Made by a program: the position numbers and the translations under genes
Assembly: GCA_964016885.1 (NCBI GenBank)
Contig: OZ024746.1
Location: 3,968,001 to 4,032,000 of the forward strand
DNA length: 64,000 bases
From: Eledone cirrhosa
Lineage: Eukaryota
Direction: 5' to 3'
Shown here: one piece after another, positions 4,089 to 61,934 of the stretch
Layout: each line of letters starts with the position of its first letter
Numbering within the stretch: position 1 is the stretch's first letter
Notes under the pieces: generated by a model
The model's input: only the letters and a program-made list of their open reading frames with translations
What the model was told of the DNA's origin: nothing
The model's database searches: none

Positions 4089-4125
<37 letters not shown>

Positions 4126-4256
4126 GATAAATCTACCAAGAGTTTACGGTAGTGTCCAATCCGTATGAAGAACTCAATGTATTCCGGATATCATGGGAAG
4201 AAGAGATGTAATGAAAATCCACTTTCGGTGAAAGATAAACGGTATACAGAGTCAAG

Positions 4257-5273
4257 ATAAAATATTAAACAAATAATGAACAAACAATTCCTTATATTAA
4301 ACAAAAAAAGTTCACTATTTAACGATCGTTTCTAGGGTATATATGTGTTATAATTGGTATGCATATTCAACAGATCTATGTACAAAATTATACAAAATTA
4401 TACAAATTATCAAGATTAAATATACATACCTAACACATATATACGCCGTCTTCAGAAATAATGAAGTATATTTATTGATAATAACAACAATTCAAAATAT
4501 CAGTTCAAAATTGACCAATGAAAACACAAAGGGTTAAAAGCAGTTTGGTGTGTGTATATACATGTAAAATCCTTACACATATTTTACAATAATGTGTGTA
4601 TAATTTGTATGTGCATACTAAAAAGATGGATGCAAACACAAAATTTCAAGGTTAATATCTCTGTAAGCTTAATGCGCTGATAAGATGCGCAATGATACTT
4701 ATGGAGTCAAGCATATAAATATATTTTTTTCATACTCACACATATCAGTATAATCACACATACATGCGCGTATATGCATAAATATACACATAACCACGAA
4801 CATACAAACACACACACTCCCCCACTCACATTTATATATGTGGATATAAAATCATAAGCAAATAGAAATTAAGTCACTCACATAAAACACTGGCACACAC
4901 ATTTCAAGATCAAGATACAGAAATTAGGTGGGAGGGGGGGGAAGGGTCAGTATTAGATTGTCAGAGCAGACTGCCTAATATAAATGTATCTATAAATTAA
5001 GAAAAATAAAAAAATAAAAACAATAAAATATAATAAATATAATATAATGTACATACACATACAGATATACATACATATACATATATGTACGCGCACATAG
5101 AGATATTTACGCATACACACATACACACATACGTATACAGTCATACACACACATACACTTACACAAACATACACATACACATATAAAAAGATATATATAC
5201 ACACATACACACACGCGCAACACATACACACATACACATATATATAAAAAATAGATAATAAAGATATATATCC

Positions 5274-5352
<79 letters not shown>

Positions 5353-5441
5353 TATACACATACATACCCATACATCTAAATATACATACACATACATACA
5401 CACATACATGTATATACATGTACATACATATACGCACATCG

Positions 5442-5497
<56 letters not shown>

Positions 5498-5839
5498 TCA
5501 CATAGACATAAAGATACATATACACACAACTTACATACACACGCATATATATATATATATATATATATATAGATGTACCTTCATACATAGAATTAGATAT
5601 ATAATCATACATACATATGCACCTACTTATACTCATATAAATAAATACATACGCTTCCATATATGTGTATACACATAAAAAACAATACCACCTCACCAAA
5701 CTCAGACATACAAATGAAAATAATAATAAAAAAACGCATATGTATATACATACACACACGCATTAATAGAGATATATATATATACACACGTACATACACA
5801 CACATATATATACATACACACACATATACATACACATAC

Positions 5840-5898
<59 letters not shown>

Positions 5899-5905
5899 TA
5901 GACTC

Positions 5906-5936
<31 letters not shown>

Positions 5937-6218
5937 AACATATATATCCACACACTCATACCACCATAAATACACATACAAACACCCACATGTATATATA
6001 TATATATATCCACATACACACACGTACACATATATATATATATATACACATATACACATACATATATATATATACACACACATAAAAAACAGACATGCAC
6101 ATATACATATATATATATATATTTCATTACTCTTATATATACACATAGTATATATACATACACAACCTCACTTATACACATATACACATAAGTTATATTA
6201 CAATAATAATAAAGAATA

Positions 6219-6253
<35 letters not shown>

Positions 6254-8183
6254 TATATACATATATATATATATACATACATACACATACATACATACAC
6301 ATAAATATATACATACATAAATACACACATACGAATAAAGACATATATTCACACATAGACACCTATATACATATATATATATATATATATATCTATATAT
6401 ATATATATACATATATACATATATATATATATATACACATACACACACACACACACACACAGACACACATACACACTCACATATATATATATATATATAT
6501 GTGTATGTGAGTATGCGCACACACACATATATACACACACACATACAAACACACACAAACACATACATATGCATACGTGCACACACACACACATATATCA
6601 CATAGATACGAAGATAAACATATAAATAGAGAGACATACAAATATATACACAACACATATACACATACATACATACACGCTTATACATATACATACATAT
6701 ATACACATATATATATTCCTATATACAAGCATACACATACATACACATATATACATATACATACACATATACATACCACACATTCACATACACATACATA
6801 TATAATATACATATATATATACATATATATACATACATATGTATGTACAATCATATATACACACTCAATCTTACATTCATATTTACATGCTCATATATGT
6901 ATTTTTATATTTAGAAATAAATACCAAAACCTATATAGACACCTACCTACATATACATTCATACATATACGCTTACAAATACAGATGATAATAGTATGGG
7001 GGAAAGGGGGGGTTTGGAGAAGGGGATCAAAGTAAATATATGTTTCAAGAAACATATAATATTTTCCGTATCTTAATTCAATGTATGTTCTTACATATTT
7101 TCAGTGCTAAGAAATACGAAATCTATGCATCTCAAAATAAATAAGTATACCATTAATCATATGTTAACTAAACCAAAGATAGTCAACATATTGATTTCTA
7201 AGGTGTAAATTAGTTAGGTTTATAATATTTGAAGCAGAATTATGAAGTCAAACAGTAGTAGATTATTAATTACATTATAACTAAATTAAAGTTAATAATG
7301 TTATGGTATCAATATTAGGAGATGAATTTAGTAATAGGGAAAAGAAACCCAAATAAAAATAAAATAAAGTATTACATCGGTAGTAGCATATAAATTATAT
7401 GTTAACTAAATTAAAAATTATATATTTATTTCAATAGTATACGTTAATTAGTATATGTTAATTAGGTATACAATACATAAAGCAGATATTGTATTTCATC
7501 AATAGCATAATATAAATATGCAAATAAAAATCAAAATTAATACGCATACATATACATATACATACACATACACATATACATACATATACACACATATATA
7601 TATATATATATATACATATATATACACACATATACATATATACACACATAAATATACATACAGATACACATACACAACACACACATATACATATACATAT
7701 ACATATACATATCTTTTTCAAAAAATTGCACAGAATATATTAACTAGGTATATATCCAAAACACATCCCATTCTATGATTACATGACATTCTGCAATTCG
7801 TCTGTACAAGGATACTAATTTTAAGCAAATTAAAATTAAAGTTTTAGGTTGATTAAAACTAAAACCAAATAATAAATATATTTCCAAAATGTATATTAAT
7901 TAGGTCTATAATACTAAAAATTCTTTCTCCGTCATTGGATACATGATATTATTTTGTTATATTTTATCTGTAAAAGAATTATAATAAAAAGGTTTAAATA
8001 AATTAAAATAAATTAAAATTAATCTATAAATTAAATTACTGAGTATATATTAGTAATATTTAAAGGTTTTTCAAAATTTATGATTACATAATATTTTCTC
8101 ATCTGTAATAAAATATTAATTAAATTAAATTTATAGGTTAACTAACATTTAAATTAAATTAATTTCTAGAATAATGTTATTAA
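4257..8183 (-). repeat. Left inverted arm (inverted copy of PLE 3' UTR/pLTR)
   Basis: Reverse complement of 9805-13745. ORF track shows mirror ORFs (e.g. 4343-4537+ and 13465-13659-). Differences are mainly microsatellite length plus rare substitutions. Confidence 0.97.
4311..4465 (-). ncRNA. Type I hammerhead ribozyme motif with extended stem II (inverted copy)
   Basis: Reverse complement of 13537-13691. Confidence 0.7.
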
Positions 8184-9808
8184 AAAATAGATCTAATTTA
8201 ACTTCGGATGACATTAACATTATTACACATGCTAGACAAACACTTATTGAATTTCAGAATGAATACTGGACCAGAAACACATACAGTAATCTTTTTGATA
8301 TTACTATGGGTTCAAGCGATTCCGCCCAAATTACTGATCTTGTGGGCCTCTTTCTCCTTTTCAACATAAATGCCTCTTTTCCCCACCTCAAAGGTGGTTT
8401 ATATCGTGATGACTGTCTTCTTCTTTCTAACAACCTTAGCCTTTCAGAAATCGAAAAAAACAAAAAGCATATTAGAACTTTCCTTAAAGACTATTATAAT
8501 CTTAATATTACTTTTGAAAAAACAAGTAAAGTAGTAAATTTCCTAGATATAACTTTAGATTTAGCTACGGGTATATACCAACCTTACCATAAACCTAACC
8601 AAAACTTACATTACATACACTCACAATCTAATCACCCTAAATCTATCCTTAAAAACCTTGCATATAATATATCACTTAGAATTTCTAACCTTTCTTCTAA
8701 CCAAGATGTATTTGATAAAAATGCGACCTTTTATAATGAAGCTCTAGATAGAAGTGGCCACAAAAATAGATTAGAGTATATACCTTCTACTAAAAATACT
8801 GAAAGTATACAGCATAATATTACCAACAAACACCAAATGAAAAGTACACACCTAAATGCCACCCACAATATACCCCAAAATACTAAATCTTCTAATATAA
8901 AGTATAGTAACCCTCAAAAAACTACTCATCATACAACTATAATAAATATTAATAATAAAACTCCTAATAAAAAAGATAAAACACCTAAATCTACAAATAT
9001 AACTAAAAATAGTTGTGGTGAGATCATTAACATTAATCCTCCTAGTAAAAATCATGATACAACATATAAAAATAATAAAAATAATAAACAACATAGAAAC
9101 CGTAATAGACGAGTTACTTGGTATAATGCTCCTTTTAATTTACAAGTTAAGGATAATATTGCTAAAAAATTTTTTTATATCCTTGAGAAAAACTTCCCGC
9201 CAAACCACAAATACCATCAAATCTTAAATAGGTCTACAGTTAAATTCTCATACTCTACAACAAATAACATAAAACAAAATATAAGTGCATATAATGCATA
9301 TAAATGTAAGAAAACCATAAGTATACCACCAGTACATCAAATTAACAATAATATCTCCTCAAATACAGAATTAACGAAAGGATGTAACTGTAGAAACAAA
9401 ACAAACTGCCCATTAAAAGGGAATTGTCTTGTTAACAACATAGTCTATAAATGTAATGTTAAAACTAAAGATTCTATTTGCTCATATATAGGAGCTACCT
9501 CTAACAATTTTAAGACAAGATATAATACCCACAAACATAGCTTTAAAAATGCCGCACTGGCTAATACAACATCTCTAGCAGAAAAAATCAATAGTTATAA
9601 AAATAAAAATATAAAGTATGATTTGACCTGGAGTGTGCTCAAAAGAGCCACCCCTTATCAAAATAATAGAAAGGAATGTAGATTATGTTCCCAAGAACTA
9701 TTTGAAATAATGAAGTCTAAGGATATCTTATTAAATAAACGACAGGAATTAATTATATCGTGTAATCATAAACTAAAAAAAACATTTAAATATTATAAAC
9801 CTAATTAA
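8174..9808 (+). CDS. PLE (Naiad-like) reverse transcriptase C-half plus GIY-YIG endonuclease, 5'-truncated, 544 aa uninterrupted
   Basis: FDITMGSSDSAQITDLVGL, GLYRDD, VNFLDITL, YHKPN..YIH..SNHP, WYNAPF, CNCR..CPLKGNCL, IVY..YIG, FKTRY..H, CRLC..E, LLNKR..CNH. N-terminal RT motifs are absent and the ATG is supplied by the inverted arm. Confidence 0.9.
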   Translation: MLLKNRSNLTSDDINIITHARQTLIEFQNEYWTRNTYSNLFDITMGSSDSAQITDLVGLFLLFNINASFPHLKGGLYRDDCLLLSNNLSLSEIEKNKKHIRTFLKDYYNLNITFEKTSKVVNFLDITLDLATGIYQPYHKPNQNLHYIHSQSNHPKSILKNLAYNISLRISNLSSNQDVFDKNATFYNEALDRSGHKNRLEYIPSTKNTESIQHNITNKHQMKSTHLNATHNIPQNTKSSNIKYSNPQKTTHHTTIININNKTPNKKDKTPKSTNITKNSCGEIININPPSKNHDTTYKNNKNNKQHRNRNRRVTWYNAPFNLQVKDNIAKKFFYILEKNFPPNHKYHQILNRSTVKFSYSTTNNIKQNISAYNAYKCKKTISIPPVHQINNNISSNTELTKGCNCRNKTNCPLKGNCLVNNIVYKCNVKTKDSICSYIGATSNNFKTRYNTHKHSFKNAALANTTSLAEKINSYKNKNIKYDLTWSVLKRATPYQNNRKECRLCSQELFEIMKSKDILLNKRQELIISCNHKLKKTFKYYKPN

Positions 9809-11738
9809 TAACATTATTCTAGAAATTAATTTAATTTAAATGTTAGTTAACCTATAAATTTAATTTAATTAATATTTTATTACAGATGAGAAAATATTAT
9901 GTAATCATAAATTTTGAAAAACCTTTAAATATTACTAATATATACTCAGTAATTTAATTTATAGATTAATTTTAATTTATTTTAATTTATTTAAACCTTT
10001 TTATTATAATTCTTTTACAGATAAAATATAACAAAATAATATCATGTATCCAATGACGGAGAAAGAATTTTTAGTATTATAGACCTAATTAATATACATT
10101 TTGGAAATATATTTATTATTTGGTTTTAGTTTTAATCAACCTAAAACTTTAATTTTAATTTGCTTAAAATTAGTATCCTTGTACAGACGAATTGCAGAAT
10201 GTCATGTAATCATAGAATGGGATGTGTTTTGGATATATACCTAGTTAATATATTCTGTGCAATTTTTTGAAAAAGATATGTATATGTATATGTATATGTA
10301 TATGTGTGTGTTGTGTATGTGTATCTGTATGTATATTTATGTGTGTATATATGTATATGTGTGTATATATATGTATATATATATATATATATATGTGTGT
10401 ATATGTATGTATATGTGTATGTGTATGTATATGTATATGTATGCGTATTAATTTTGATTTTTATTTGCATATTTATATTATGCTATTGATGAAATACAAT
10501 ATCTGCTTTATGTATTGTATACCTAATTAACATATACTAATTAACGTATACTATTGAAATAAATATATAATTTTTAATTTAGTTAACATATAATTTATAT
10601 GCTACTACCGATGTAATACTTTATTTTATTTTTATTTGGGTTTCTTTTCCCTATTACTAAATTCATCTCCTAATATTGATACCATAACATTATTAACTTT
10701 AATTTAGTTATAATGTAATTAATAATCTACTACTGTTTGACTTCATAATTCTGCTTCAAATATTATAAACCTAACTAATTTACACCTTAGAAATCAATAT
10801 GTTGACTATCTTTGGTTTAGTTAACATATGATTAATGGTATACTTATTTATTTTGAGATGCATAGATTTCGTATTTCTTAGCACTGAAAATATGTAAGAA
10901 CATACATTGAATTAAGATACGGAAAATATTATATGTTTCTTGAAACATATATTTACTTTGATCCCCTTCTCCAAACCCCCCCTTTCCCCCATACTATTAT
11001 CATCTGTATTTGTAAGCGTATATGTATGAATGTATATGTAGGTAGGTGTCTATATAGGTTTTGGTATTTATTTCTAAATATAAAAATACATATATGAGCA
11101 TGTAAATATGAATGTAAGATTGAGTGTGTATATATGATTATACATACATATGTATGTATATATATGTATATATATATGTATATTATATATGTATGTGTAT
11201 GTGAATGTGTGGTATGTATATGTGTATGTATATGTATATATGTGTATGTATGTGTATGCTTGTATATAGGAATATATATATGTGTATATATGTATGTATA
11301 TGTATAAGCGTGTATGTATGTATGTGTATATGTGTTGTGTATATATTTGTATGTCTCTCTATTTATATGTTTATCTTCGTATCTATGTGATATATGTGTG
11401 TGTGTGTGCACGTATGCATATGTATGTGTTTGTGTGTGTTTGTATGTGTGTGTGTATATATGTGTGTGTGCGCATACTCACATACACATATATATATATA
11501 TATATATGTGAGTGTGTATGTGTGTCTGTGTGTGTGTGTGTGTGTGTATGTGTATATATATATATATATGTATATATGTATATATATATATATAGATATA
11601 TATATATATATATATATGTATATAGGTGTCTATGTGTGAATATATGTCTTTATTCGTATGTGTGTATTTATGTATGTATATATTTATGTGTATGTATGTA
11701 TGTGTATGTATGTATGTATATATATATATATGTATATA

Positions 11739-11773
<35 letters not shown>

Positions 11774-12055
11774 TATTCTTTATTATTATTGTAATATAAC
11801 TTATGTGTATATGTGTATAAGTGAGGTTGTGTATGTATATATACTATGTGTATATATAAGAGTAATGAAATATATATATATATATGTATATGTGCATGTC
11901 TGTTTTTTATGTGTGTGTATATATATATATGTATGTGTATATGTGTATATATATATATATATGTGTACGTGTGTGTATGTGGATATATATATATATATAC
12001 ATGTGGGTGTTTGTATGTGTATTTATGGTGGTATGAGTGTGTGGATATATATGTT

Positions 12056-12086
<31 letters not shown>

Positions 12087-12093
12087 GAGTCTA

Positions 12094-12158
<65 letters not shown>

Positions 12159-12500
12159 GTATGTGTATGTATATGTGTGTGTATGTATATATATGTGTGT
12201 GTATGTACGTGTGTATATATATATATCTCTATTAATGCGTGTGTGTATGTATATACATATGCGTTTTTTTATTATTATTTTCATTTGTATGTCTGAGTTT
12301 GGTGAGGTGGTATTGTTTTTTATGTGTATACACATATATGGAAGCGTATGTATTTATTTATATGAGTATAAGTAGGTGCATATGTATGTATGATTATATA
12401 TCTAATTCTATGTATGAAGGTACATCTATATATATATATATATATATATATATGCGTGTGTATGTAAGTTGTGTGTATATGTATCTTTATGTCTATGTGA

Positions 12501-12560
<60 letters not shown>

Positions 12561-12649
12561 CGATGTGCGTATATGTATGTACATGTATATACATGTATGT
12601 GTGTATGTATGTGTATGTATATTTAGATGTATGGGTATGTATGTGTATA

Positions 12650-12728
<79 letters not shown>

Positions 12729-13736
12729 GGATATATATCTTTATTATCTATTTTTTATATATATGTGTATGTGTGTATGTGTTGCGCGTGTGTGTATGTG
12801 TGTATATATATCTTTTTATATGTGTATGTGTATGTTTGTGTAAGTGTATGTGTGTGTATGACTGTATACGTATGTGTGTATGTGTGTATGCGTAAATATC
12901 TCTATGTGCGCGTACATATATGTATATGTATGTATATCTGTATGTGTATGTACATTATATTATATTTATTATATTTTATTGTTTTTATTTTTTTATTTTT
13001 CTTAATTTATAGATACATTTATATTAGGCAGTCTGCTCTGACAATCTAATACTGACCCTTCCCCCCCCTCCCACCTAATTTCTGTATCTTGATCTTGAAA
13101 TGTGTGTGCCAGTGTTTTATGTGAGTGACTTAATTTCTATTTGCTTATGATTTTATATCCACATATATAAATGTGAGTGGGGGAGTGTGTGTGTTTGTAT
13201 GTTCGTGGTTATGTGTATATTTATGCATATACGCGCATGTATGTGTGATTATACTGATATGTGTGAGTATGAAAAAAATATATTTATATGCTTGACTCCA
13301 TAAGTATCATTGCGCATCTTATCAGCGCATTAAGCTTACAGAGATATTAACCTTGAAATTTTGTGTTTGCATCCATCTTTTTAGTATGCACATACAAATT
13401 ATACACACATTATTGTAAAATATGTGTAAGGATTTTACATGTATATACACACACCAAACTGCTTTTAACCCTTTGTGTTTTCATTGGTCAATTTTGAACT
13501 GATATTTTGAATTGTTGTTATTATCAATAAATATACTTCATTATTTCTGAAGACGGCGTATATATGTGTTAGGTATGTATATTTAATCTTGATAATTTGT
13601 ATAATTTTGTATAATTTTGTACATAGATCTGTTGAATATGCATACCAATTATAACACATATATACCCTAGAAACGATCGTTAAATAGTGAACTTTTTTTG
13701 TTTAATATAAGGAATTGTTTGTTCATTATTTGTTTA

Positions 13737-13745
<9 letters not shown>
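9805..13745 (+). repeat. Right arm (PLE 3' UTR/pLTR, microsatellite-rich)
   Basis: Starts at the ORF stop codon and ends at TTTTAT|(AT)n. Confidence 0.97.
13537..13691 (+). ncRNA. Type I hammerhead ribozyme motif with about 115-nt stem II
   Basis: 10-bp stem I TTCATTATTT/AAATAGTGAA, CTGAAGA core, long hairpin GTATATATGTGTTA/TAACACATATATAC, then GAAAC-GATC-GTT (palindromic stem III, GUU site). Confidence 0.72.
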
Positions 13746-15394: not shown

Positions 15395-15929
15395 GGTATG
15401 TGTGTGTATAATTAAGAAATATTCTCCAAAGAGCAACGGAAAAATGACAGTTAAATAAGATGCTAAATATATTATTGGAGAAGGTAGAAATTTATTTCAT
15501 ATAGAAATAACTTCTACAGGACTTGAAGTGTTTCATGTGTTCCAAATCATTAGTACACAGTCTTAGTCCTATGGACGTTATTTGAGATATATCTTACTGT
15601 TAGGTAGGTACCAGTGAGATGCTTGTGAGATGTAAATGACTGAACATTTCACACACACGTGCACCTCTTAACGAGATTTTCTGAGAAATTCGGTGTGAAA
15701 CATTTTGAGACAAGGCGTTAGCTTTTTAAATTAAAAGAATTTTTTAAATTTCCCACTTTTACTTGTAATGTTTAGATCAGCTTGAGGTTATGGTAGCTGC
15801 ACTATGAGATCGAACCCAGAACTATGAGTTTACCAAGTGATCTTGTTAACCACACAAACAATGTCGGTGGCCGTATAAAAAGATATATTCGTTCATGTAG
15901 AGGTATGTGCTGTTAAAAACCTTTATATT

Positions 15930-16042
15930 CTTAATCCTTTCGGGGGTCGATAAAATAAAATACCAGTAATGCACTGGGGTCAATTAAATCGACTTTCCCC
16001 TTCCCCAAAATTGTTGGTCTTGTGCCTAAATCATAAACCAAT
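15930..16042 (+). mobile_element. Nin/Deu-domain-type tRNA SINE, 3' part
   Basis: GGGGTCGATAAAATAAAATACCAG core and 3' end matching the family. Confidence 0.75.
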
Positions 16043-16084
16043 ATTCACTAGGGTCGGTAGAAATTAAAACCAGAAGTTCCAATA

Positions 16085-16308
16085 ATGGTTTCTTATACAG
16101 GCGCAAGGCCAGCAATTTTGGGGGAGGGGAAAGTCGATTAAATCGACCTCAGTCGATAACTGGTACTTTATTTTATCGACCACGTAAGGTTGAAAGGCAA
16201 AGGCAAAGATAACCTCGGCGGGATTTGAACTCAGAACGCAAAGGGCCAAAACTCTATGTTGCAAAGCATGGTGTCTGACACTCTGCCGATACTGCCAATC
16301 TACCGCCA
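16085..16308 (-). mobile_element. Nin/Deu-domain-type tRNA SINE
   Basis: Minus strand A-box TGGCAGTATCGG, B-box GAGTTCAAATCCC, core GCCTTTCA..GTCGATAAAATAAAGTACCAG. Confidence 0.85.
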
Positions 16309-19239: not shown

Positions 19240-20578
19240 GTAAGCTCCCTAACAGTGTCAAAAGAGGATACATCACGAACGAGATCGCGCGAATCAAAAA
19301 CAGATGCAGCGATCCCGCGAGTGGTGTCACTCATACCAAGCGATTCCTCGAGGTGCTGGAGACGAACGGATATCCACCTCGCTCACAGACAGAGTAGGAG
19401 ACACCAGACACAAGAGACAGAGAGGCACCCAAGGCAAGTGCTTCCTTAAAATGCCACACCTGGGCGAGAAAACCACCAACGCTATCCGCAAGGCTATACG
19501 GAGGGAGGGCCTCGTCATCCACCTGGCCCACTCGGGCCCCTCCCTGCGAAGATGCCTCTCCAGGAAATCAACTGACGCGTGCTCCCTCAGAGACTGCCCG
19601 ATACGCCATGCGAACTGTTGCCTGCGCACATACGTCGTGTATAAGATAGAATGTGACAGGTGCAACGAATACTATATAGGTAGCACAATCCGACCTTTGC
19701 ACATCCGGATCAAGGAACATACTAAAACCAGGGCCTCGTCTTTCCGGAAACACATAGACAAATGCGGAAACAAAGACGGAAGGCCCATTGTCGCAATTCT
19801 AGCGACTGAAAGAAACGTCTGCACGTTACGTATTAAGGAAGCGCTTTTTATCAAACGCCTGGAACCGCAAATAAACAATAGATCCGAGAGAAGCGAAATG
19901 AGGTGGCTGGTTTAAGTTAACAAACGATACAGCCACACACGCACACACACACAAACGAGACAACTACTCACGCACACGCACACACACACACACAGTAGCA
20001 TTCCACCATACGAACATACTACACTGCCAATACAGAGGAACAAGGCAACAACACACGCACACACACACACACTCAAGCGAGACAACAACACACGCACACA
20101 CACACACAGTAACATTTAACAAACAGGCAGAGAATGGACTGACAGCTAGCGCCACCCCACTCCCACATTCGGCCGCTGACCTCCGCCCGACCGACCCCAT
20201 TTCACGCGCACGCGCGTTCTGCTGAATACCTCAGATATTCAAAACAACAAACAGCGGAGGACGCGTTTCGCACCTTTCCTACAGACAACCTTTCCCCCAC
20301 CCCGGAAAAAACCCCCAGTTGATGGATGTGAATCCGAAATATATAGGGACAATTAAATCTCTCCCAAGGTAACTCTCTCTCGTGTTGTTATTTTTATTTT
20401 ATCCTTTATACTCTTTCCTTCATTCCTCTACACGCTACAGTCTTCTACACGCCACGCATCTCAACGTTCACCCACTTACATCTCTCTCGCCACCACCGGA
20501 TCTTGTTACCCGGAGATTTACCTTAAAGATATTTACCTATTATTCCACAATGCTTCAAGCAAACTTCAATACTCTCTT
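19240..20578 (+). mobile_element. Penelope-like element remnant (thumb, linker and GIY-YIG, ORF 19304-19915) with 3' UTR ending in (TA)n
   Basis: C..CP..C, VVYKIECDRC..YIGSTIRPLHIRIKEH, LRIKEALFI..P.IN. Frameshifted upstream. HHR-like motif at 20313-20349. Confidence 0.88.
20313..20349 (+). ncRNA. Degenerate hammerhead motif in PLE 3' UTR
   Basis: CCC-CAGTTGAT-GGATgtgaATCC-GAAA-TATATA-GGG. Homologous to 31342-31378(-). Confidence 0.5.
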
Positions 20579-20593
20579 ATATATATATATATA

Positions 20594-20650
20594 GCCCAGA
20601 ATTAGCCGTCGAAACGGCTTGAGCTCAGCCGTCGGGGTCCTACTCGTTCC

Positions 20651-20652
<2 letters not shown>
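20594..20652 (+). mobile_element. Single short arm of palindromic HHR mini-element family X
   Basis: Matches the right arm of 22358-22545 and is flanked by (TA)n. Confidence 0.8.
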
Positions 20653-20693
<41 letters not shown>

Positions 20694-22357: not shown

Positions 22358-22359
<2 letters not shown>

Positions 22360-22545
22360 CGAAGGAAATGTGGTAAGGAACCAGATGGACCATAACGCAG
22401 CAAAGAACTCAATACTTAGGGTAGTAGAGTGGGTAATAGGAACGAGTAGGACCCGACGGCTGAGCTCAAACCGTTTCGACGGCTAATTCCAGAATTAGCC
22501 GTCGAAACGGCTTGAGCTCAGCCGTCGGGGTCCTACTCGTTCCTA
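22358..22545. mobile_element. Asymmetric palindromic HHR mini-element, family X
   Basis: About 55-bp inverted arms centred near 22490, about 75-bp extra tail on the left, (TA)n on both sides. Confidence 0.85.
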
Positions 22546-22912
22546 TATATATATATATATATATATATTTAAAAAAAATAGAGGTGTGACACACGAGTTG
22601 TGATATATTAGTAAAAAGGAAAAGAAAATGGTGATAAATTTTTCCCAGTGAAAAATAGTTTAATTAGGAATAAGTATAAATTAGTAATAAGTATTGGTTA
22701 GTATTCAGTTTTAGTTTTAAGTTTTTACCGGTTGCGCATTTCTTATGCTTTTCAAAAATAATTTTGTGATAGAGTGCTCTTGATTTTTGCTCTAATCTGA
22801 TCAGTTTTAGAAATTCTTCCTGTTTTATGTGAAAAAAGTGGCTTGGGAGGCATTAAGATTACATTGAGTTTTTCATACGGCTTGGACCCTACCATTAATT
22901 GGTGGATTTATC

Positions 22913-31229: not shown

Positions 31230-31232
<3 letters not shown>

Positions 31233-32448
31233 GTTTGAATTTGTAAAGCCAAACAATGCAGGTATGGACATAGAATATAAAAAATGCAAATGCAAAAGAT
31301 ATTGTTGACAATTAGTCTTTTACCTTAGATTTATTTAAATGTCCTTAATTTTCGAGATAATATCTCTTCTTCGGAGGGAAGTAAAGCGGTTAAACCAGTG
31401 TTCAAAATAGCTTGCCGGGTCATGCTGACAGGAAATGGTATAGAGTATCTGTTCTATCTCTAATATCAAAGAGTTAAGGTTAGGTAGATAAAGAGGGTTT
31501 TTTTTTGTACATGTCTGTTTAAGTGTGTGGGAGAATGCGTGAATATGTAAGTATGTGTGTGTGTGTGTGAGTGTGAGAAGATATGTCTATACGTAAAGGT
31601 GGGGGATAGATGTTCTCTCGTGTTAGAACTGGTCTTTGTATGTGTGTGTGTGAGAGAGAATAAGTGGATGTGTAAGCGTGTGTGTGCGTGCGTGTGTGTG
31701 TGTGCGTGTGTGTGGGGTGTAAGTATGGGGCTAGATGCTCTATCAAGTTATAAATTGGGTGTTTAGTTCTAGTCTATTATTGATTAGTGGTTGTGTTTTG
31801 TCTATAATTAGTGCTTCCTTAATTCTAAGATTGCCGAGGTTTCTTTCCTTAGTTTCTATCCTAACTGTTTTGTCGGTGTTTTTGCATTTCACTAGGTATT
31901 TCTTAAATGAGGAAGCGTTAGTATTGAGGTGTTCTTTTATTCTTATGTGGAGTGATCAGGTGGTGCTACCTACGTAGAAGTTGCTGCATTTGTCGCACTC
32001 TAGTCTGTATACGACGTAAGCCTGGTGGTAAATGTCTGTGTCATTGATGAGGAAGTTGGCTAGCCTGCAGCGGTTGTCATGTCTGGTGGAGTGTCTTTTC
32101 GTTAGCTGTCCGCGTAGAGAAGGTCCTGAGTGGGCCAGTTGGATATCTAGTCCCTCTCGTCTGATAGCTCTGCGGATGGCTGTTGTTGTTTCGTCACTGA
32201 AGTGTGGGAGCTTCAGGAAGCAAGTGTTAGTGCCTCGGGTGTGGTGTCCTCTGTTCTTTCTGGCACGGTTTGTGGTGGATGTCGTGTATCCGTTCAGTTT
32301 GAGTACTTCCAGGAAATGTGTGGTGTGTGTGTCTCGGTCTCTAGCGTCGGTGCATTTGTTCCGGATACGTGTTAATTCGTTCCTTATGTATCCGAACTTA
32401 GCGCCGGCTGGGAGGGCCGATCTGAAATGTACGAACAAATAACTTCCT

Positions 32449-32450
<2 letters not shown>
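31230..32450 (-). mobile_element. Penelope-like element remnant related to 19240-20578
   Basis: GYIRNELTRIRNKC, CFLKLPHF, AIRREGL..AHSGPSLR, VVYRLECDKC..YVGSTT*, LRIKEALII..P.INN. (TA)n on both sides. HHR-like CCGAAGA..GAGAT att ATCTC GAAA at 31342-31378. Confidence 0.88.
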
Positions 32451-32493
<43 letters not shown>

Positions 32494-32495
<2 letters not shown>

Positions 32496-32698
32496 CGAAG
32501 GAGGTGTGGTAAGGAACCAGGTGGACCCAAACACACCAGAGTACTCGATACTTTTGGTAGTAGAGTGGGAAATAGGAAAAGAGTCAAGACCCCGACGGCA
32601 GAGCTCAAGCCGTTTCGACGGCTATTTCTGGACTCAGTCCAGAAATAGCCGTCGAAACGGCTTGAGCTCTGCCGTCGGGGTGTTGACTCTTTTCCTAT
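32494..32698. mobile_element. Asymmetric palindromic HHR mini-element, family X
   Basis: About 63-bp inverted arms centred near 32636 plus left tail. Confidence 0.85.
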
Positions 32699-45805: not shown

Positions 45806-45880
<75 letters not shown>

Positions 45881-45882
<2 letters not shown>

Positions 45883-46052
45883 ATCCAGGGTAACCACAGT
45901 AAGTAAGGTACTCAATATGTTAGTAGATTGTAGACAAATTTAATATAGAAGTGGCTTCTACAGGAGTAGAACTGTTTCATTCAAAGGAGTTCATCAGGTC
46001 TTCCTGATGATTCCTTTGAATGAAACAGTTCTACTCCTGTAGAAGCCATTTC
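45881..46052. mobile_element. Asymmetric palindromic HHR mini-element, family Y
   Basis: Arms 45948-45998/46003-46052 meeting at CATCAGG-TCTT-CCTGATGA. Tail shared with 51809-51870. Confidence 0.82.
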
Positions 46053-46253
46053 CCCCTCTCTCTCTATCTTTCTCTCTCTCTATCTCTCTCTCTCACTCTC
46101 TCTCTCTCTCTCTGTATATCTATATATATATATATATATATCTTTTTCTAACTCCTGCCTTTCTATTTGATGTCACTGACACTGTCAATAGTTATGTATC
46201 TATATAAATTTTCTGAAGACTAGGATTTTAAATACCTGTTTAAACATTGTGTA

Positions 46254-46300
46254 TGCTCCGATGATTCCAGACATTCGTCTGGAAGAAACAATTGTCAGCA
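46254..46300 (+). ncRNA. Type I hammerhead ribozyme motif (C4 variant)
   Basis: TGCT-CCGATGA-TTCCAGAC attc GTCTGGAA-GAAAC-AATT-GTC-AGCA. Confidence 0.82.
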
Positions 46301-46464
46301 ATTAAATGTATTAAACTAAGATTTGATTGTTTTATATTTTGTTTCTCGGTTCTGTAATATATTTGATAATTTACATAGACCCTTTTCTTTTACTGGTAAC
46401 TGGCTACTGCTTAGTACTACCCTCCATATTTACAATTATATATAAACCATATGTAAGTATAAAT

Positions 46465-50908: not shown

Positions 50909-51330
50909 AATGGAAGTTTAGTAAAATCGAAGTTTTGGCTGTGGCAAAGCTAACGATATACAATTAGGAATGTGTAGCAAAGCACTCGATTATGTTGTGT
51001 CACCTGATAGTAATAACATACGTTAGATAGCTTGACAAATTGAAAACTGCAACAGGTGAACCCAGCCACATGAAACCAAAGCAACGAAAAAAAACAATCA
51101 GGTATTGACAAACAAATATATATATATACATATACATATACATACATATATAATAATAATATTATTTATAGTTATATATACACTATATACAACTATAAAC
51201 AGGAAAGGACAGTAATTCATTACTACCTTATTACCAGTAAGAAAAATAGCTCAATGTAAATACATCAGATGTTTAACAGAGCAGGAATATAAATTACACA
51301 ATAATCAAAGCTATGTTCAACTCATTTTAT

Positions 51331-51377
51331 TGCTGACAATCGTTTCTTCCAAACTTTCGTTTGGAATCATCGGAGCA
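51331..51377 (-). ncRNA. Type I hammerhead ribozyme motif (C4 variant), paralogue of 46254-46300
   Basis: Minus strand TGCT-CCGATGA-TTCCAAAC gaaa GTTTGGAA-GAAAC-GATT-GTC-AGCA. Confidence 0.82.
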
Positions 51378-51680
51378 CTAGCAAAGTTTGGACATATAAT
51401 TAACTTCCTATTCAACTGAACAATCATATAGATACATGGATATTAATGTTGTCATCAACCGTTTCGTATTTACAGAGTGGAATGGATGTGAAAGAGATTA
51501 CAAGAGAATAGTATAATAATTAAAGAGGCACAGAGTGGAATACATGCGACAGAGATTACAAGGGAATAGTATAATAATTAAAGAGGCATTAAGGTAGAAA
51601 GTTACTCATAAAACGAGGACACTAGCAGTACATATGCAAGCGTATAGAGAGTGAAAATGCGTTATATATATATATATATA

Positions 51681-51867
51681 TATTTAATATAGAAAAGCTT
51701 CTACAGGACTAGAACTGTTTCATTCGTGAGAAATCATCAGTCAGCTTTCTGATGATTTCTCACGAATGAAACAGTTCTAGTCCTGTAGAAGGTTTTCTAT
51801 ATTAAATATTTATACTCTGCTTTGTATTGAGTACTTTACTTACTGTGGTTACCCCCGATTGAACCCA

Positions 51868-51870
<3 letters not shown>
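51681..51870. mobile_element. Asymmetric palindromic HHR mini-element, family Y
   Basis: 60-bp arms 51681-51740/51749-51808 meeting at TCATCAG..CTGATGA, right tail, (TA)n on both sides. Confidence 0.85.
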
Positions 51871-51913
<43 letters not shown>

Positions 51914-51915
<2 letters not shown>

Positions 51916-52123
51916 CGAAGGAAATGTGGTAAAGAACCAGATGGACCATAACGCACCAAAGTACTCAATACTTAGGGTAGTAGAGTGGGTAATAGGAACG
52001 AGTAGGACCCCGACGGCTGAGCTCAAGCCGTTTCGACGGCTAATTCTGGACTCAGAATTTTGGAGTCCAGAATTAGCCGTCGAAACGGCTTGAGCTCAGC
52101 CGTCGGGGTCCTACTCGTTCCTA
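51914..52123. mobile_element. Asymmetric palindromic HHR mini-element, family X
   Basis: About 64-bp arms around a short AGAATTTTG loop, left tail, (TA)n on both sides. Confidence 0.85.
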
Positions 52124-52136
52124 TATATATATATAG

Positions 52137-52300
52137 GGTAAGGGTAAAGACCCCCTTCGGTCATAAATGACCATATGATTTGCACCTAGAATGTTCCGGG
52201 CGAGGTTATTTGTGAAAGATCAGTAGTCACCCATGCATGCCAGTCTCCTCTCTCCATGCCAGCGATGTTGTCCAAGGGAAAGGCAATGGCCGGTACGACT
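52137..52300 (-). mobile_element. SINE 3' fragment (family of 1148-1455)
   Basis: Reverse complement resembles 1310-1450. Confidence 0.55.
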
Positions 52301-55147: not shown

Positions 55148-55370
55148 TATTTATTAAAATAACAGATTAAAGTTTAAGCAAAGAATCGCTGCTGTCACTC
55201 TTAACGGGATCTTCTGAAGATCCCGTTAAGGGTGAAAGCAGCGATTCTTTGCTTAAACTTTAATCTGTTATTTTAATAAATATTTCCTCTACGGTTCTTA
55301 TATATTTGATATATATTTATCCTTATCGAGCCGTCTTTGGATTTTAGTCTTCAAATTTATTATTATTACT
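55148..55370. mobile_element. Asymmetric palindromic mini-element with HHR-like core
   Basis: About 67-bp arms centred at 55215 inside CTGAAGA, followed by TCCCgttaaGGGT-GAAA. Right tail, (TA)n on both sides. Confidence 0.8.
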
Positions 55371-57900: not shown

Positions 57901-58167
57901 TATAAAGAAAAAGAGATGAAATCGAAAATGCAACTGGAGTCTTATTTAAAAAATAATATATATTTATTTGGTTCCTTTACCGGTTTCGCAGTTCTTCTGC
58001 TTTTGAAAAGCAGAAGAACTGCGAAACCGGTAAAGGAACCAAATAAATATATATATATTTAAAAAAAATAAGACTCCAGTTGCATTTTCGATTTCATCTC
58101 TTTTTCTTTATACTTTCACTCGTGTAGGACACCTCGGTTATTTTTTATTTTGTAAAAAAAACCTCAC

Positions 58168-58173
<6 letters not shown>
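57901..58173. mobile_element. Asymmetric palindromic HHR mini-element, family Z (U3-A8 core)
   Basis: About 104-bp arms centred at 58005, TTGAAAA-GCAG aagaa CTGC-GAAAC-CG-GTA, right tail, (TA)n on both sides. Confidence 0.85.
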
Positions 58174-60241: not shown

Positions 60242-60312
<71 letters not shown>

Positions 60313-60315
<3 letters not shown>

Positions 60316-60521
60316 AAGGATGTGTGGTGAGGAACCCGGTGGACCATAACGCACCACAGTACTCAATACTTTGGGCAGTAGAGTGGGTAATAGGAAAAGA
60401 GTCAGAACCCCGACGGCAGAGCTCAAGCCGTTTCGACAGCTATTTCTGGACTCAGAAATAGTCCAGAAATAGCTGTCGAAACGGCTTGAGCTCTGCCGTT
60501 GGGGTTCTGACTCTTTTCCTA
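60313..60521. mobile_element. Asymmetric palindromic HHR mini-element, family X
   Basis: About 62-bp arms, left tail, TA flanks. Confidence 0.85.
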
Positions 60522-60542
60522 TATCTATCTATATATATATAT

Positions 60543-60650
60543 GGAAAAAAGATGAAATCGAAAATGCAACTGGAGTTTTATTTAAAAAAAAAATATATGT
60601 TTTGTTCCTTTACCGGGTTCGCAGTTCTTCTGCTTTTCAAAACTTCTGTT
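60543..60650 (-). mobile_element. Non-palindromic copy of family Z pLTR/HHR
   Basis: Matches 57905-58005 and continues past the fold-back point. Confidence 0.75.
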
Positions 60651-61934
60651 TTATATGTTATGAAACACATAACCTTTATATTCTATATTCCATGTATACG
60701 TCAACCCCATGCACATCTCATATATACTTTTACGAAATGGATGTTACACATACCCACAATATGTATAACTTGTTTGTCGTACTCACGGTCCACATCTAAC
60801 CACAAGCCACGAGACCTGCATCATGCGCAGGCTCCCACCCAGTGCCTTAGATCACCAGCCCCCATGTATATTATAGAAACATTTGTACCACAGCCCCCAT
60901 GTATATTATAGAAACATTTGCACCACAGCCCCCAAGTATTGTATGCAACTTTACGCACACCCCGATAATGTCCGGACCCCCTCTGCACCCTTGTCATGTA
61001 GGCATTCACTTTTTCCAGGATTTTATTCTATTTTATTTTATTTTATTTTATTATATTTTATTATTGTATATTATTTCATTATTATATTATTTTATGTTAT
61101 GTACGTACAGGCTTTTATATCTGTGTCACCCACGCTATATGTGATTAGTGCAGGGATATTGTGCTGCCGTAACATTTATGCATCTTGTGCAGGCACTTTC
61201 GGACTCATACCGCCACGTGATCGGGTTGGGTCAGAGCCTCAAAAGCGTTGTCTCATACAATACTGTGTGCACCATCTGTGCAGCTGCGCGTGTGAAGATG
61301 GATGGAGGAGGGGGGGGGGGGGGGGTACTCCTCAAGTATACGCCTCCGGTGTGGGAGCACGCGGGTGCATGTATGTATGTGTGCCCACACAGACATGCAG
61401 AGCACAGGTGTGCGCATGCCTGGGTCGATGTATTTGTCTGAGCATGTCTGCGTTGGGGTATGGATGACTATCTATGGATTTTTCTTTTCTCATCTGTCTA
61501 TATATGTGCGGCGTCTTGGCTATGCGCGCTTCCCTGAGTCCAGTGTGTGAGTGTAGACTTGGGTGTGTTTGTTGAAAACACCTTTGATATCGCCTTTCTG
61601 TTTGAAAGGCTGTTGAAAGCTTTCATTTAAACACGTTCTTAATACAGGTTTTTTTCTTTTTCTTTTTCTTTTTCTTTTTCTTTTTCTTTTTCTTTTTCTT
61701 TTTGAAATATGTATGGTGGAGGGTATCCTAAGGCTGTGTCTTAGTAGCGGGTGTGTACCTGACCGATGTCAGCCGTTCAAGATTACAGCCCCTCTCCCAC
61801 CACAGTAGTAATTCTGATATATGAAGTGTACAATTATTGACCACTCATGGAAGTTCAACAACAGGATCTAAATCAACAAACGAAGAAAATCGATGTTAAA
61901 GGACAATAGGAAAACCTGCTTCGTAGAATCGAGA

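Follow-up and report, generated by a model that had tools for sequence, protein, structure and literature searches.

Fold-back insertions of one family in Eledone cirrhosa: probable Penelope-like element stubs with a shared inner arm end

A palindrome at 51914-52123 of the window (the whole 64,000 nt stretch analysed) carries, in each arm, part of a hammerhead-like ribozyme motif, and this raises the question of whether the centre of the palindrome is a ribozyme stem inherited from a parent element or a joint made at insertion. When the window was searched with this segment by BLAST, exactly five loci were found, as the sequence-only reading had listed, and beyond them only 15-nt chance matches. 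All five members of this family (family X) sit in (TA)n, in a window that holds 141 (TA)n arrays of at least 6 units, plus fragments of LINEs as well as of Penelope-like elements (PLEs). The copies, and the parts of the copy at 51914 (copy D), are as follows.

Copy A, 20593-20653, plus strand: short arm alone; begins at the shared base (see below), reading AGCCC.
Copy B, 22358-22546: centre CCAG; both arms begin 3-7 nt downstream of the shared base.
Copy C, 32494-32698: both arms from the shared base; single C at 32635.
Copy D, 51914-52124: two arms around an 11-nt spacer.
Copy E, 60312-60522: both arms from the shared base; spacer CAGAAAT at 60453-60459.
Copy D long arm, 51914..52052, minus strand (RNA sense on minus): 139 nt, AGTCC to the (TA)n junction.
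Copy D one-sided tail, 51914..51991, minus strand: 77-78 nt between the short-arm and long-arm ends, which probably correspond to two reverse transcriptase (RT) start sites.
Copy D tail motif ATTGAGTAC, 51961..51969, minus strand: 55 nt before the long end; common to family Y and the large RT-endonuclease element.
Copy D junction spacer CAGAATTTTGG, 52053..52063, no strand: missing from longer family members.
Copy D short arm, 52064..52124, plus strand: 61 nt from the shared AGTCC base.
Copy D hammerhead-like 3' half, 52082..52109, plus strand: GAAA, 5-bp stem round a palindromic GAGCTC loop, GUC and GGGGT, without a CTGAnGA block.

Copies and their three fixed points

Copy D forms a 62-bp hairpin (z = -21) that none of 200 shuffles equalled in stability. 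An inverted 5'-short copy adjoins the 5' end in four of the five insertions, and all four full copies carry a tail on one end only, of 77-78 nt. Both outer ends had been described as fixed, and they are: short arms run 40-46 nt past GAAA to CCTAT, followed by A (5/5, by a scripted TA rule), and long arms end 119-122 nt after GAAA (4/4). The family is abundant in the sequencing data of one organism, where 17,426 contigs and 23,330 reads were matched, and eight of 22 listed sequencing runs were compared with the copy D long arm. In the raw reads of one run, 3544 cross into TA immediately before 51992, as do another 1250 that carry an indel variant, so the short end appears fixed family-wide. Runs X5, X7, X8 and X10, with 2-5 matched contigs each, may represent traces of DNA from the same host and were not counted as other species. 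Searches with family X patterns gave 0 matches in each of the metagenome, viral and prokaryote genome collections.

Over 53-56 nt, 0-2 sites distinguish the two arms of one copy, against 6-10 sites across subfamilies (A, B and D versus C and E) and 3-4 between C and E, confirming that arms share subfamily variants within a copy. The centres of the four two-armed copies differ, as noted before (CCAG, C, CAGAATTTTGG and CAGAAAT), and single contigs show still others, such as the perfect fold at AATT in run X10. Nine of the 11 joints listed are opposite-strand joints, at varied places. Differing centres, arms that covary by subfamily and a short end fixed in 3544 reads support the proposal that the palindromes formed independently, from one template family and two fixed priming sites.

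Each copy had also been credited with a junction of its own. This is true of the 1-11 nt spacer (1 nt in C, 11 nt in D, 7 nt in E), which is the variable part, but not of the arm ends: seven of nine arms begin at the same base, the A of AGTCC, 18 nt upstream of GAAA. These seven represent four of the five insertions and both subfamilies, and only the two arms of copy B are shorter. The chance of four of five short arms coinciding is roughly 6e-4 to 4e-5, a figure that assumes uniform ends over 20-50 positions. Family X stubs have three fixed points, one inner and two outer.

The bases at the joint show further regularities. The base before the shared one is G in each of the three long arms extending that far and in the copy D short arm (4/7 arms), where longer members carry T; this G is missing from the short arms of copies A and E. 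The same three long arms continue into an extra C and then 2-8 bases that complement sequence upstream in the same arm, as a brief fold-back would leave. The cDNA termini of copies C and E, AG on the long arm and CT on the short arm, overlap by 2 nt, which suits two true cDNA ends better than trimmed flaps. A divergent subfamily, behind position 52042, retains TT/AGTY (the slash stands before the shared base) at the same 18 nt from GAAA, with different sequence upstream, and in two contigs, identical to each other there, TATTTAAA begins 29 nt upstream of the shared base.

The tail motif and a probable link to Penelope-like elements

Several other insertions in the window bear on the identity of family X.

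Large Hydra-like PLE insertion, 4123-13745: RT-endonuclease frame 8153-9808 between near-perfect inverted repeats; 134-nt one-sided tail.
Large PLE hammerhead, 4310-4470 (minus strand) and 13532-13692 (plus strand): unusually long stem II, palindromic stem III, z = -6.5.
Family Y, 45880-46052, 51675-51870 and, partial, 15490-15570: same fold-back layout; complete CTGATGA...GAAA cores in both arms; tail motif common with X.
Family Z, 57904-58170 and 60545-60660: fold-back stub; U3-A8 core TTGAAAA; centre inside the core.
Family W, 55148-55295: fold-back stub; centre inside CTGAAGA; full core in the long arm only.
GIY-YIG PLE fragments, 5'-truncated, 19253-20578 (plus strand) and 31232-32450 (minus strand): 51% protein identity over 176 aa; they end in a hammerhead-like motif and TA.

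The motif ATTGAG(T/C)(A/T)C occurs six times in the window against 2.5 expected (3 of 100 shuffles reach six), and all six matches lie within one-sided tails: those of X copies B, D and E, two family Y stubs and the large element. It stands 55 nt from the long end in family X and 56 nt in the large element, the frame of which (8153-9808) carries the motifs MGSSDS and YRDD and by eye resembles Hydra-1_Obim. Alignments of X and Y tails exceed shuffles for the pairs D-Y2 (4/2000) and E-Y2 (3/2000), while four of the eight comparisons are weak (65-130/2000). Through this common motif, family X is tied, indirectly, to hammerhead-bearing stubs and to an RT-endonuclease element. X copies A and C directly adjoin the two GIY-YIG fragments, and the one at 31232-32450 has its end 124 nt beyond its GAAA, much as in an X long arm. 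By eye, a motif resembling the tail motif also follows the hammerhead in Hydra-2_Amil.

We therefore regard the family X copies as very probably independently formed PLE insertion stubs. Endonuclease-bearing PLEs are described with an inverted, head-to-head 5'-short copy, an optional one-sided tail that extends one end, and a (TA)n bias (PMC8557442; PMC3846280), all as in family X, and the short palindromes reported at the 5' ends of Adineta vaga pLTRs are akin to it. Family X departs from the published structure in having only the last 61 and 139 nt, a tail of 77-78 rather than 30-40 nt, and inner ends that coincide at one base rather than falling at random 5' truncations. How PLEs build inverted structures has been called an open question (PMC8557442). 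For Poseidon_Ac, the tail corresponds to the stretch separating two fixed sites, both downstream of the hammerhead, at which RT starts; the target is AT-rich, as for family X, and ribozyme cleavage is dispensable for insertion in vitro (PMC11167929). The relevant text of that work does not address cDNA stop points and joining. In the literature covered (without most subscription papers, Repbase and some supplements), nothing was found on family X, on fixed inner ends or on cap-derived bases in PLE stubs. Nor were family X motifs found at informative places in the supplements of PMC8557442, where line breaks could hide a match, or of PMC10085705.

The palindrome centre and the missing half of the hammerhead

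The sequence-only reading took the palindrome centre for stem II of a parent ribozyme, preceded by CCCC-CTGAnGA-GACGGCTA. Longer, non-palindromic members give this no support, turning AT-rich upstream instead. In their visible 20-30 bases past the shared base neither the GACGGCTA strand nor CTGAnGA was found, and CTGAnGA is likewise missing from the 38-48 nt visible before GAAA, as it is from the 38 nt before GAAA in the divergent subfamily (1475 + 842 reads). A contig of run X7, identical to copy D over 52010-52052, continues AT-rich rather than into the stem strand. In all eight runs the sequence past 52052 is an AT-rich stretch opening AAAT; the consensus agreement is only 0.45-0.53 for the four deep runs, where many copies are mixed, and reaches 0.75-1.0 for the other four, which have one or two contigs each. 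Mean depth in run X21 drops from about 2520 at 52050-51 to 118 at 52054-55, 33 at 52056-57 and 11 at 52058-59, a fall to which the probable depletion of long hairpins in such libraries may contribute; on this fall, the CAGAA continuation of copies D and E is rare. Since longer members do not have the stem strand, the perfect 'stem II' appears to have been made at the junction, not inherited from parent DNA.

GAAA, a stem around a palindromic loop, GUC and GGGGT are present as described, but the 8-nt loop palindrome TGAGCTCA occurs only in copies A, B and D; C and E keep GAGCTC alone. The absence of the CUGAnGA half from the copies was also correctly noted: neither CTGAnGA nor TTGAnAA occurs exactly on either strand of the five copies, and core 7-mers with one mismatch number three in copy E and none in the others. 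The putative hammerhead 3' half, examined for GAAA, a stem III with A15.1-U16.1 and an NUH site, pairs in 45/45 cells with 0 two-sided changes (no covariation), and a competing 6-bp hairpin pairs in 54/54 cells. For stems I and II only the 3' strands are present, the predicted 5' strands not being found in the visible sequence. With the CUGAnGA block missing, the stub is predicted not to self-cleave. A complete ribozyme in the parent is possible, since the neighbouring large element has its core 123 nt before GAAA, which is beyond the visible upstream sequence of family X, and splicing is a further possible source of the half that is missing.

Over the window, Rfam gave 0 matches at the gathering score; at E<=10 no hammerhead appeared among 48 matches over 51650-52150, which is uninformative as the complete motif of family Y was also missed there. 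A relaxed hammerhead scan gave 16 matches against 4-11 in 10 shuffles and was used as a list only. No copy of the upstream parent sequence lies in the window: one search for it gave one two-mismatch match against 1.2 expected, and a second gave 0 matches. An apparent compensatory change between the upstream strand and the subfamily was dropped once variants were assigned to contigs. The divergent subfamily, seen in runs X1, X20 and X21 and not in the window, has a different segment before TAGCCGTC and CG for TT at the loop flank, with GAGCTC kept.

Metazoan PLE type I hammerheads (PMC4209133; Hydra table of PMC8557442) have GAAA, a palindromic helix III loop and an NUH site in common with family X, and opposite-strand pairs of them 100-700 bp apart have already been mentioned (PMC4209133). 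They differ in the CUGAnGA block, which in family X is missing both from the stub and from the visible 38-48 nt ahead of GAAA. The label 'HHR_half_core' given to some Naiads is a closer fit, though it denotes a distant second half. A non-circularly permuted hammerhead (type SGC and kin, with all three blocks in scrambled order, PMC10085705) was rejected, as there is no CUGAnGA block within the 139-nt long arm, and so was an animal non-LTR retrozyme, there being neither tandem units nor a complete ribozyme in the five copies. At the 3' end of Naiad_Obim (PMC8557442 supplement), GAAA precedes CTGATGA, possibly a scrambled hammerhead layout.

Proposed run-off to a capped RNA start and the alternatives

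The class of element and the formation model are largely those published for PLEs, and the fixed inner end is the new point. The reading we favour, with some reserve, is of PLE stubs in which most arms (7/9) end at a common base, likely the point where the capped RNA begins. The endonuclease of the element would cut a TA array, and each end would prime one cDNA, so that two cDNAs would start from two internal RNA sites on the two sides of one cut. Both would be extended up to the same fixed landmark on the RNA, which is most likely its capped transcription start. An extra cap-templated C would then let the long-arm cDNA fold back, adding CAG, CAGAAAT or CAGAATT, and the arms would be end-joined through the 2-nt AG/CT overlap. 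The enzyme involved is probably a TA-targeting PLE of the Hydra clade.

A capped start is favoured because TT/AGTY is kept, with TT/AGTC at the shared base resembling the initiator consensus, and because TATTTAAA lies 29 nt upstream. Precedents speak for it as well: the Penelope transcript begins inside the pLTR (PMC2377424), and full-length L1 insertions carry at the 5' junction an extra G from the cap, one G before the first RNA base, as in 4/7 family X arms (PMC11702581). That G was shown for L1 and not for PLEs, and in family X it is entangled with the fold-back explanation. Several points count against a start site. A 3' splice site would account just as well for TTAG behind a T-rich tract; AT-rich DNA often contains TATA-like words, TATTTAAA comes from two contigs that do not differ there, and the D. 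virilis Penelope promoter is TATA-less (PMC2377424). Copy B (2/9 arms) starts elsewhere, the short arms of A and E lack the extra G, and the insertions number five. The single G at the centre of family Z was considered as cap-derived and rejected, being G5 of the TTGAAAA core.

Were the shared base instead a 3' splice site of the same PLE stubs (T-rich tract, then TTAG/TCC), which we think rather unlikely, either RT would stall at the bound acceptor of unspliced RNA, or the long arms would copy spliced RNA, a first exon ending in CTGAG supplying CUGAnGA and the 5' strand of the perfect stem II, so that the hammerhead would be assembled only by splicing. The second version would account for the missing CTGAnGA block, and in the long arms of C, D and E CTGAG does stand before TCC, with complementary bases that match the subfamily. 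None of the observed variants has lost the T-rich tract and TAG, even as the sequence farther upstream diverges, and in D. virilis Penelope an intron ends at the 5' end of helix I, such that spliced and unspliced RNA form different ribozymes (PMC4209133). A splice site does not account for short arms that stop exactly at AG and long arms that go 3-9 nt further, however, and at most about 1% of the reads that pass the site contain the stem predicted from splicing (depth 33 at 52056-57 versus about 2520); PLEs also usually keep their introns on moving (PMC8557442). Similarly doubtful is a widened form of the sequence-only reading, in which stem II is long and bulged, the shared base falls in its loop and the type I hammerhead core lies more than 48 nt upstream; at that loop RT would stall or the cDNAs anneal. 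Here the large element with the same tail motif offers a model, as its CTGAAGA lies 123 nt before GAAA in a well-formed three-way type I junction (0/200 shuffles), and GGCT in two upstream variants could pair with AGCC. The fold-back of stubs Y, W and Z likewise lies at the ribozyme 5' edge, in or beside the CTGAnGA block and 18-20 nt before GAAA, with no sign of a start site, and the similar distance hints at a shared structural cause. On the other hand, the visible upstream DNA lacks the GACGGCTA strand, pairing is poor in the commonest upstream variant, none of the four centres in the window is the in-register product of such a stem, and an exact one-base stall inside a loop is not expected. 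The start, splice and long-stem readings of the landmark can overlap.

A quite different origin, as a TA-targeting miniature inverted-repeat DNA transposon or as a single ancestral palindrome that spread whole, its arms being homogenised later, would suit a short palindrome with TA flanks and high copy number in one organism. It is very improbable and already largely refuted: the ends, asymmetric by 77-78 nt, are not the symmetric terminal inverted repeats of such a transposon, copy A is one-armed, the centres are not alike, some longer members are not palindromic and the tail motif recurs at PLE ends.

Were the shared base indeed the capped RNA start, run-off and end-joining in vivo would stand recorded in thousands of copies. 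A more speculative extension, which we put forward tentatively, is that the hammerhead is split by the RNA processing of the element, with the CUGAnGA half upstream of the transcription start or of an intron and the ribozyme armed only in read-through or spliced RNA. The stubs would then be run-off products that map the RNA 5' end and both RT start sites, and the fold-back would be seeded by the cap-derived C. If true, a ribozyme that is armed only through read-through or splicing would be a modest but real addition.

Two further repeats in the window were seen in passing. A two-copy family (46194-46399 and 51231-51437) carries a hammerhead-like CCGATGA...GAAA in which stem II differs between the copies and stays paired, and 15945-16181 is a fold-back copy of an abundant SINE-like repeat family with about 12 copies in the window.
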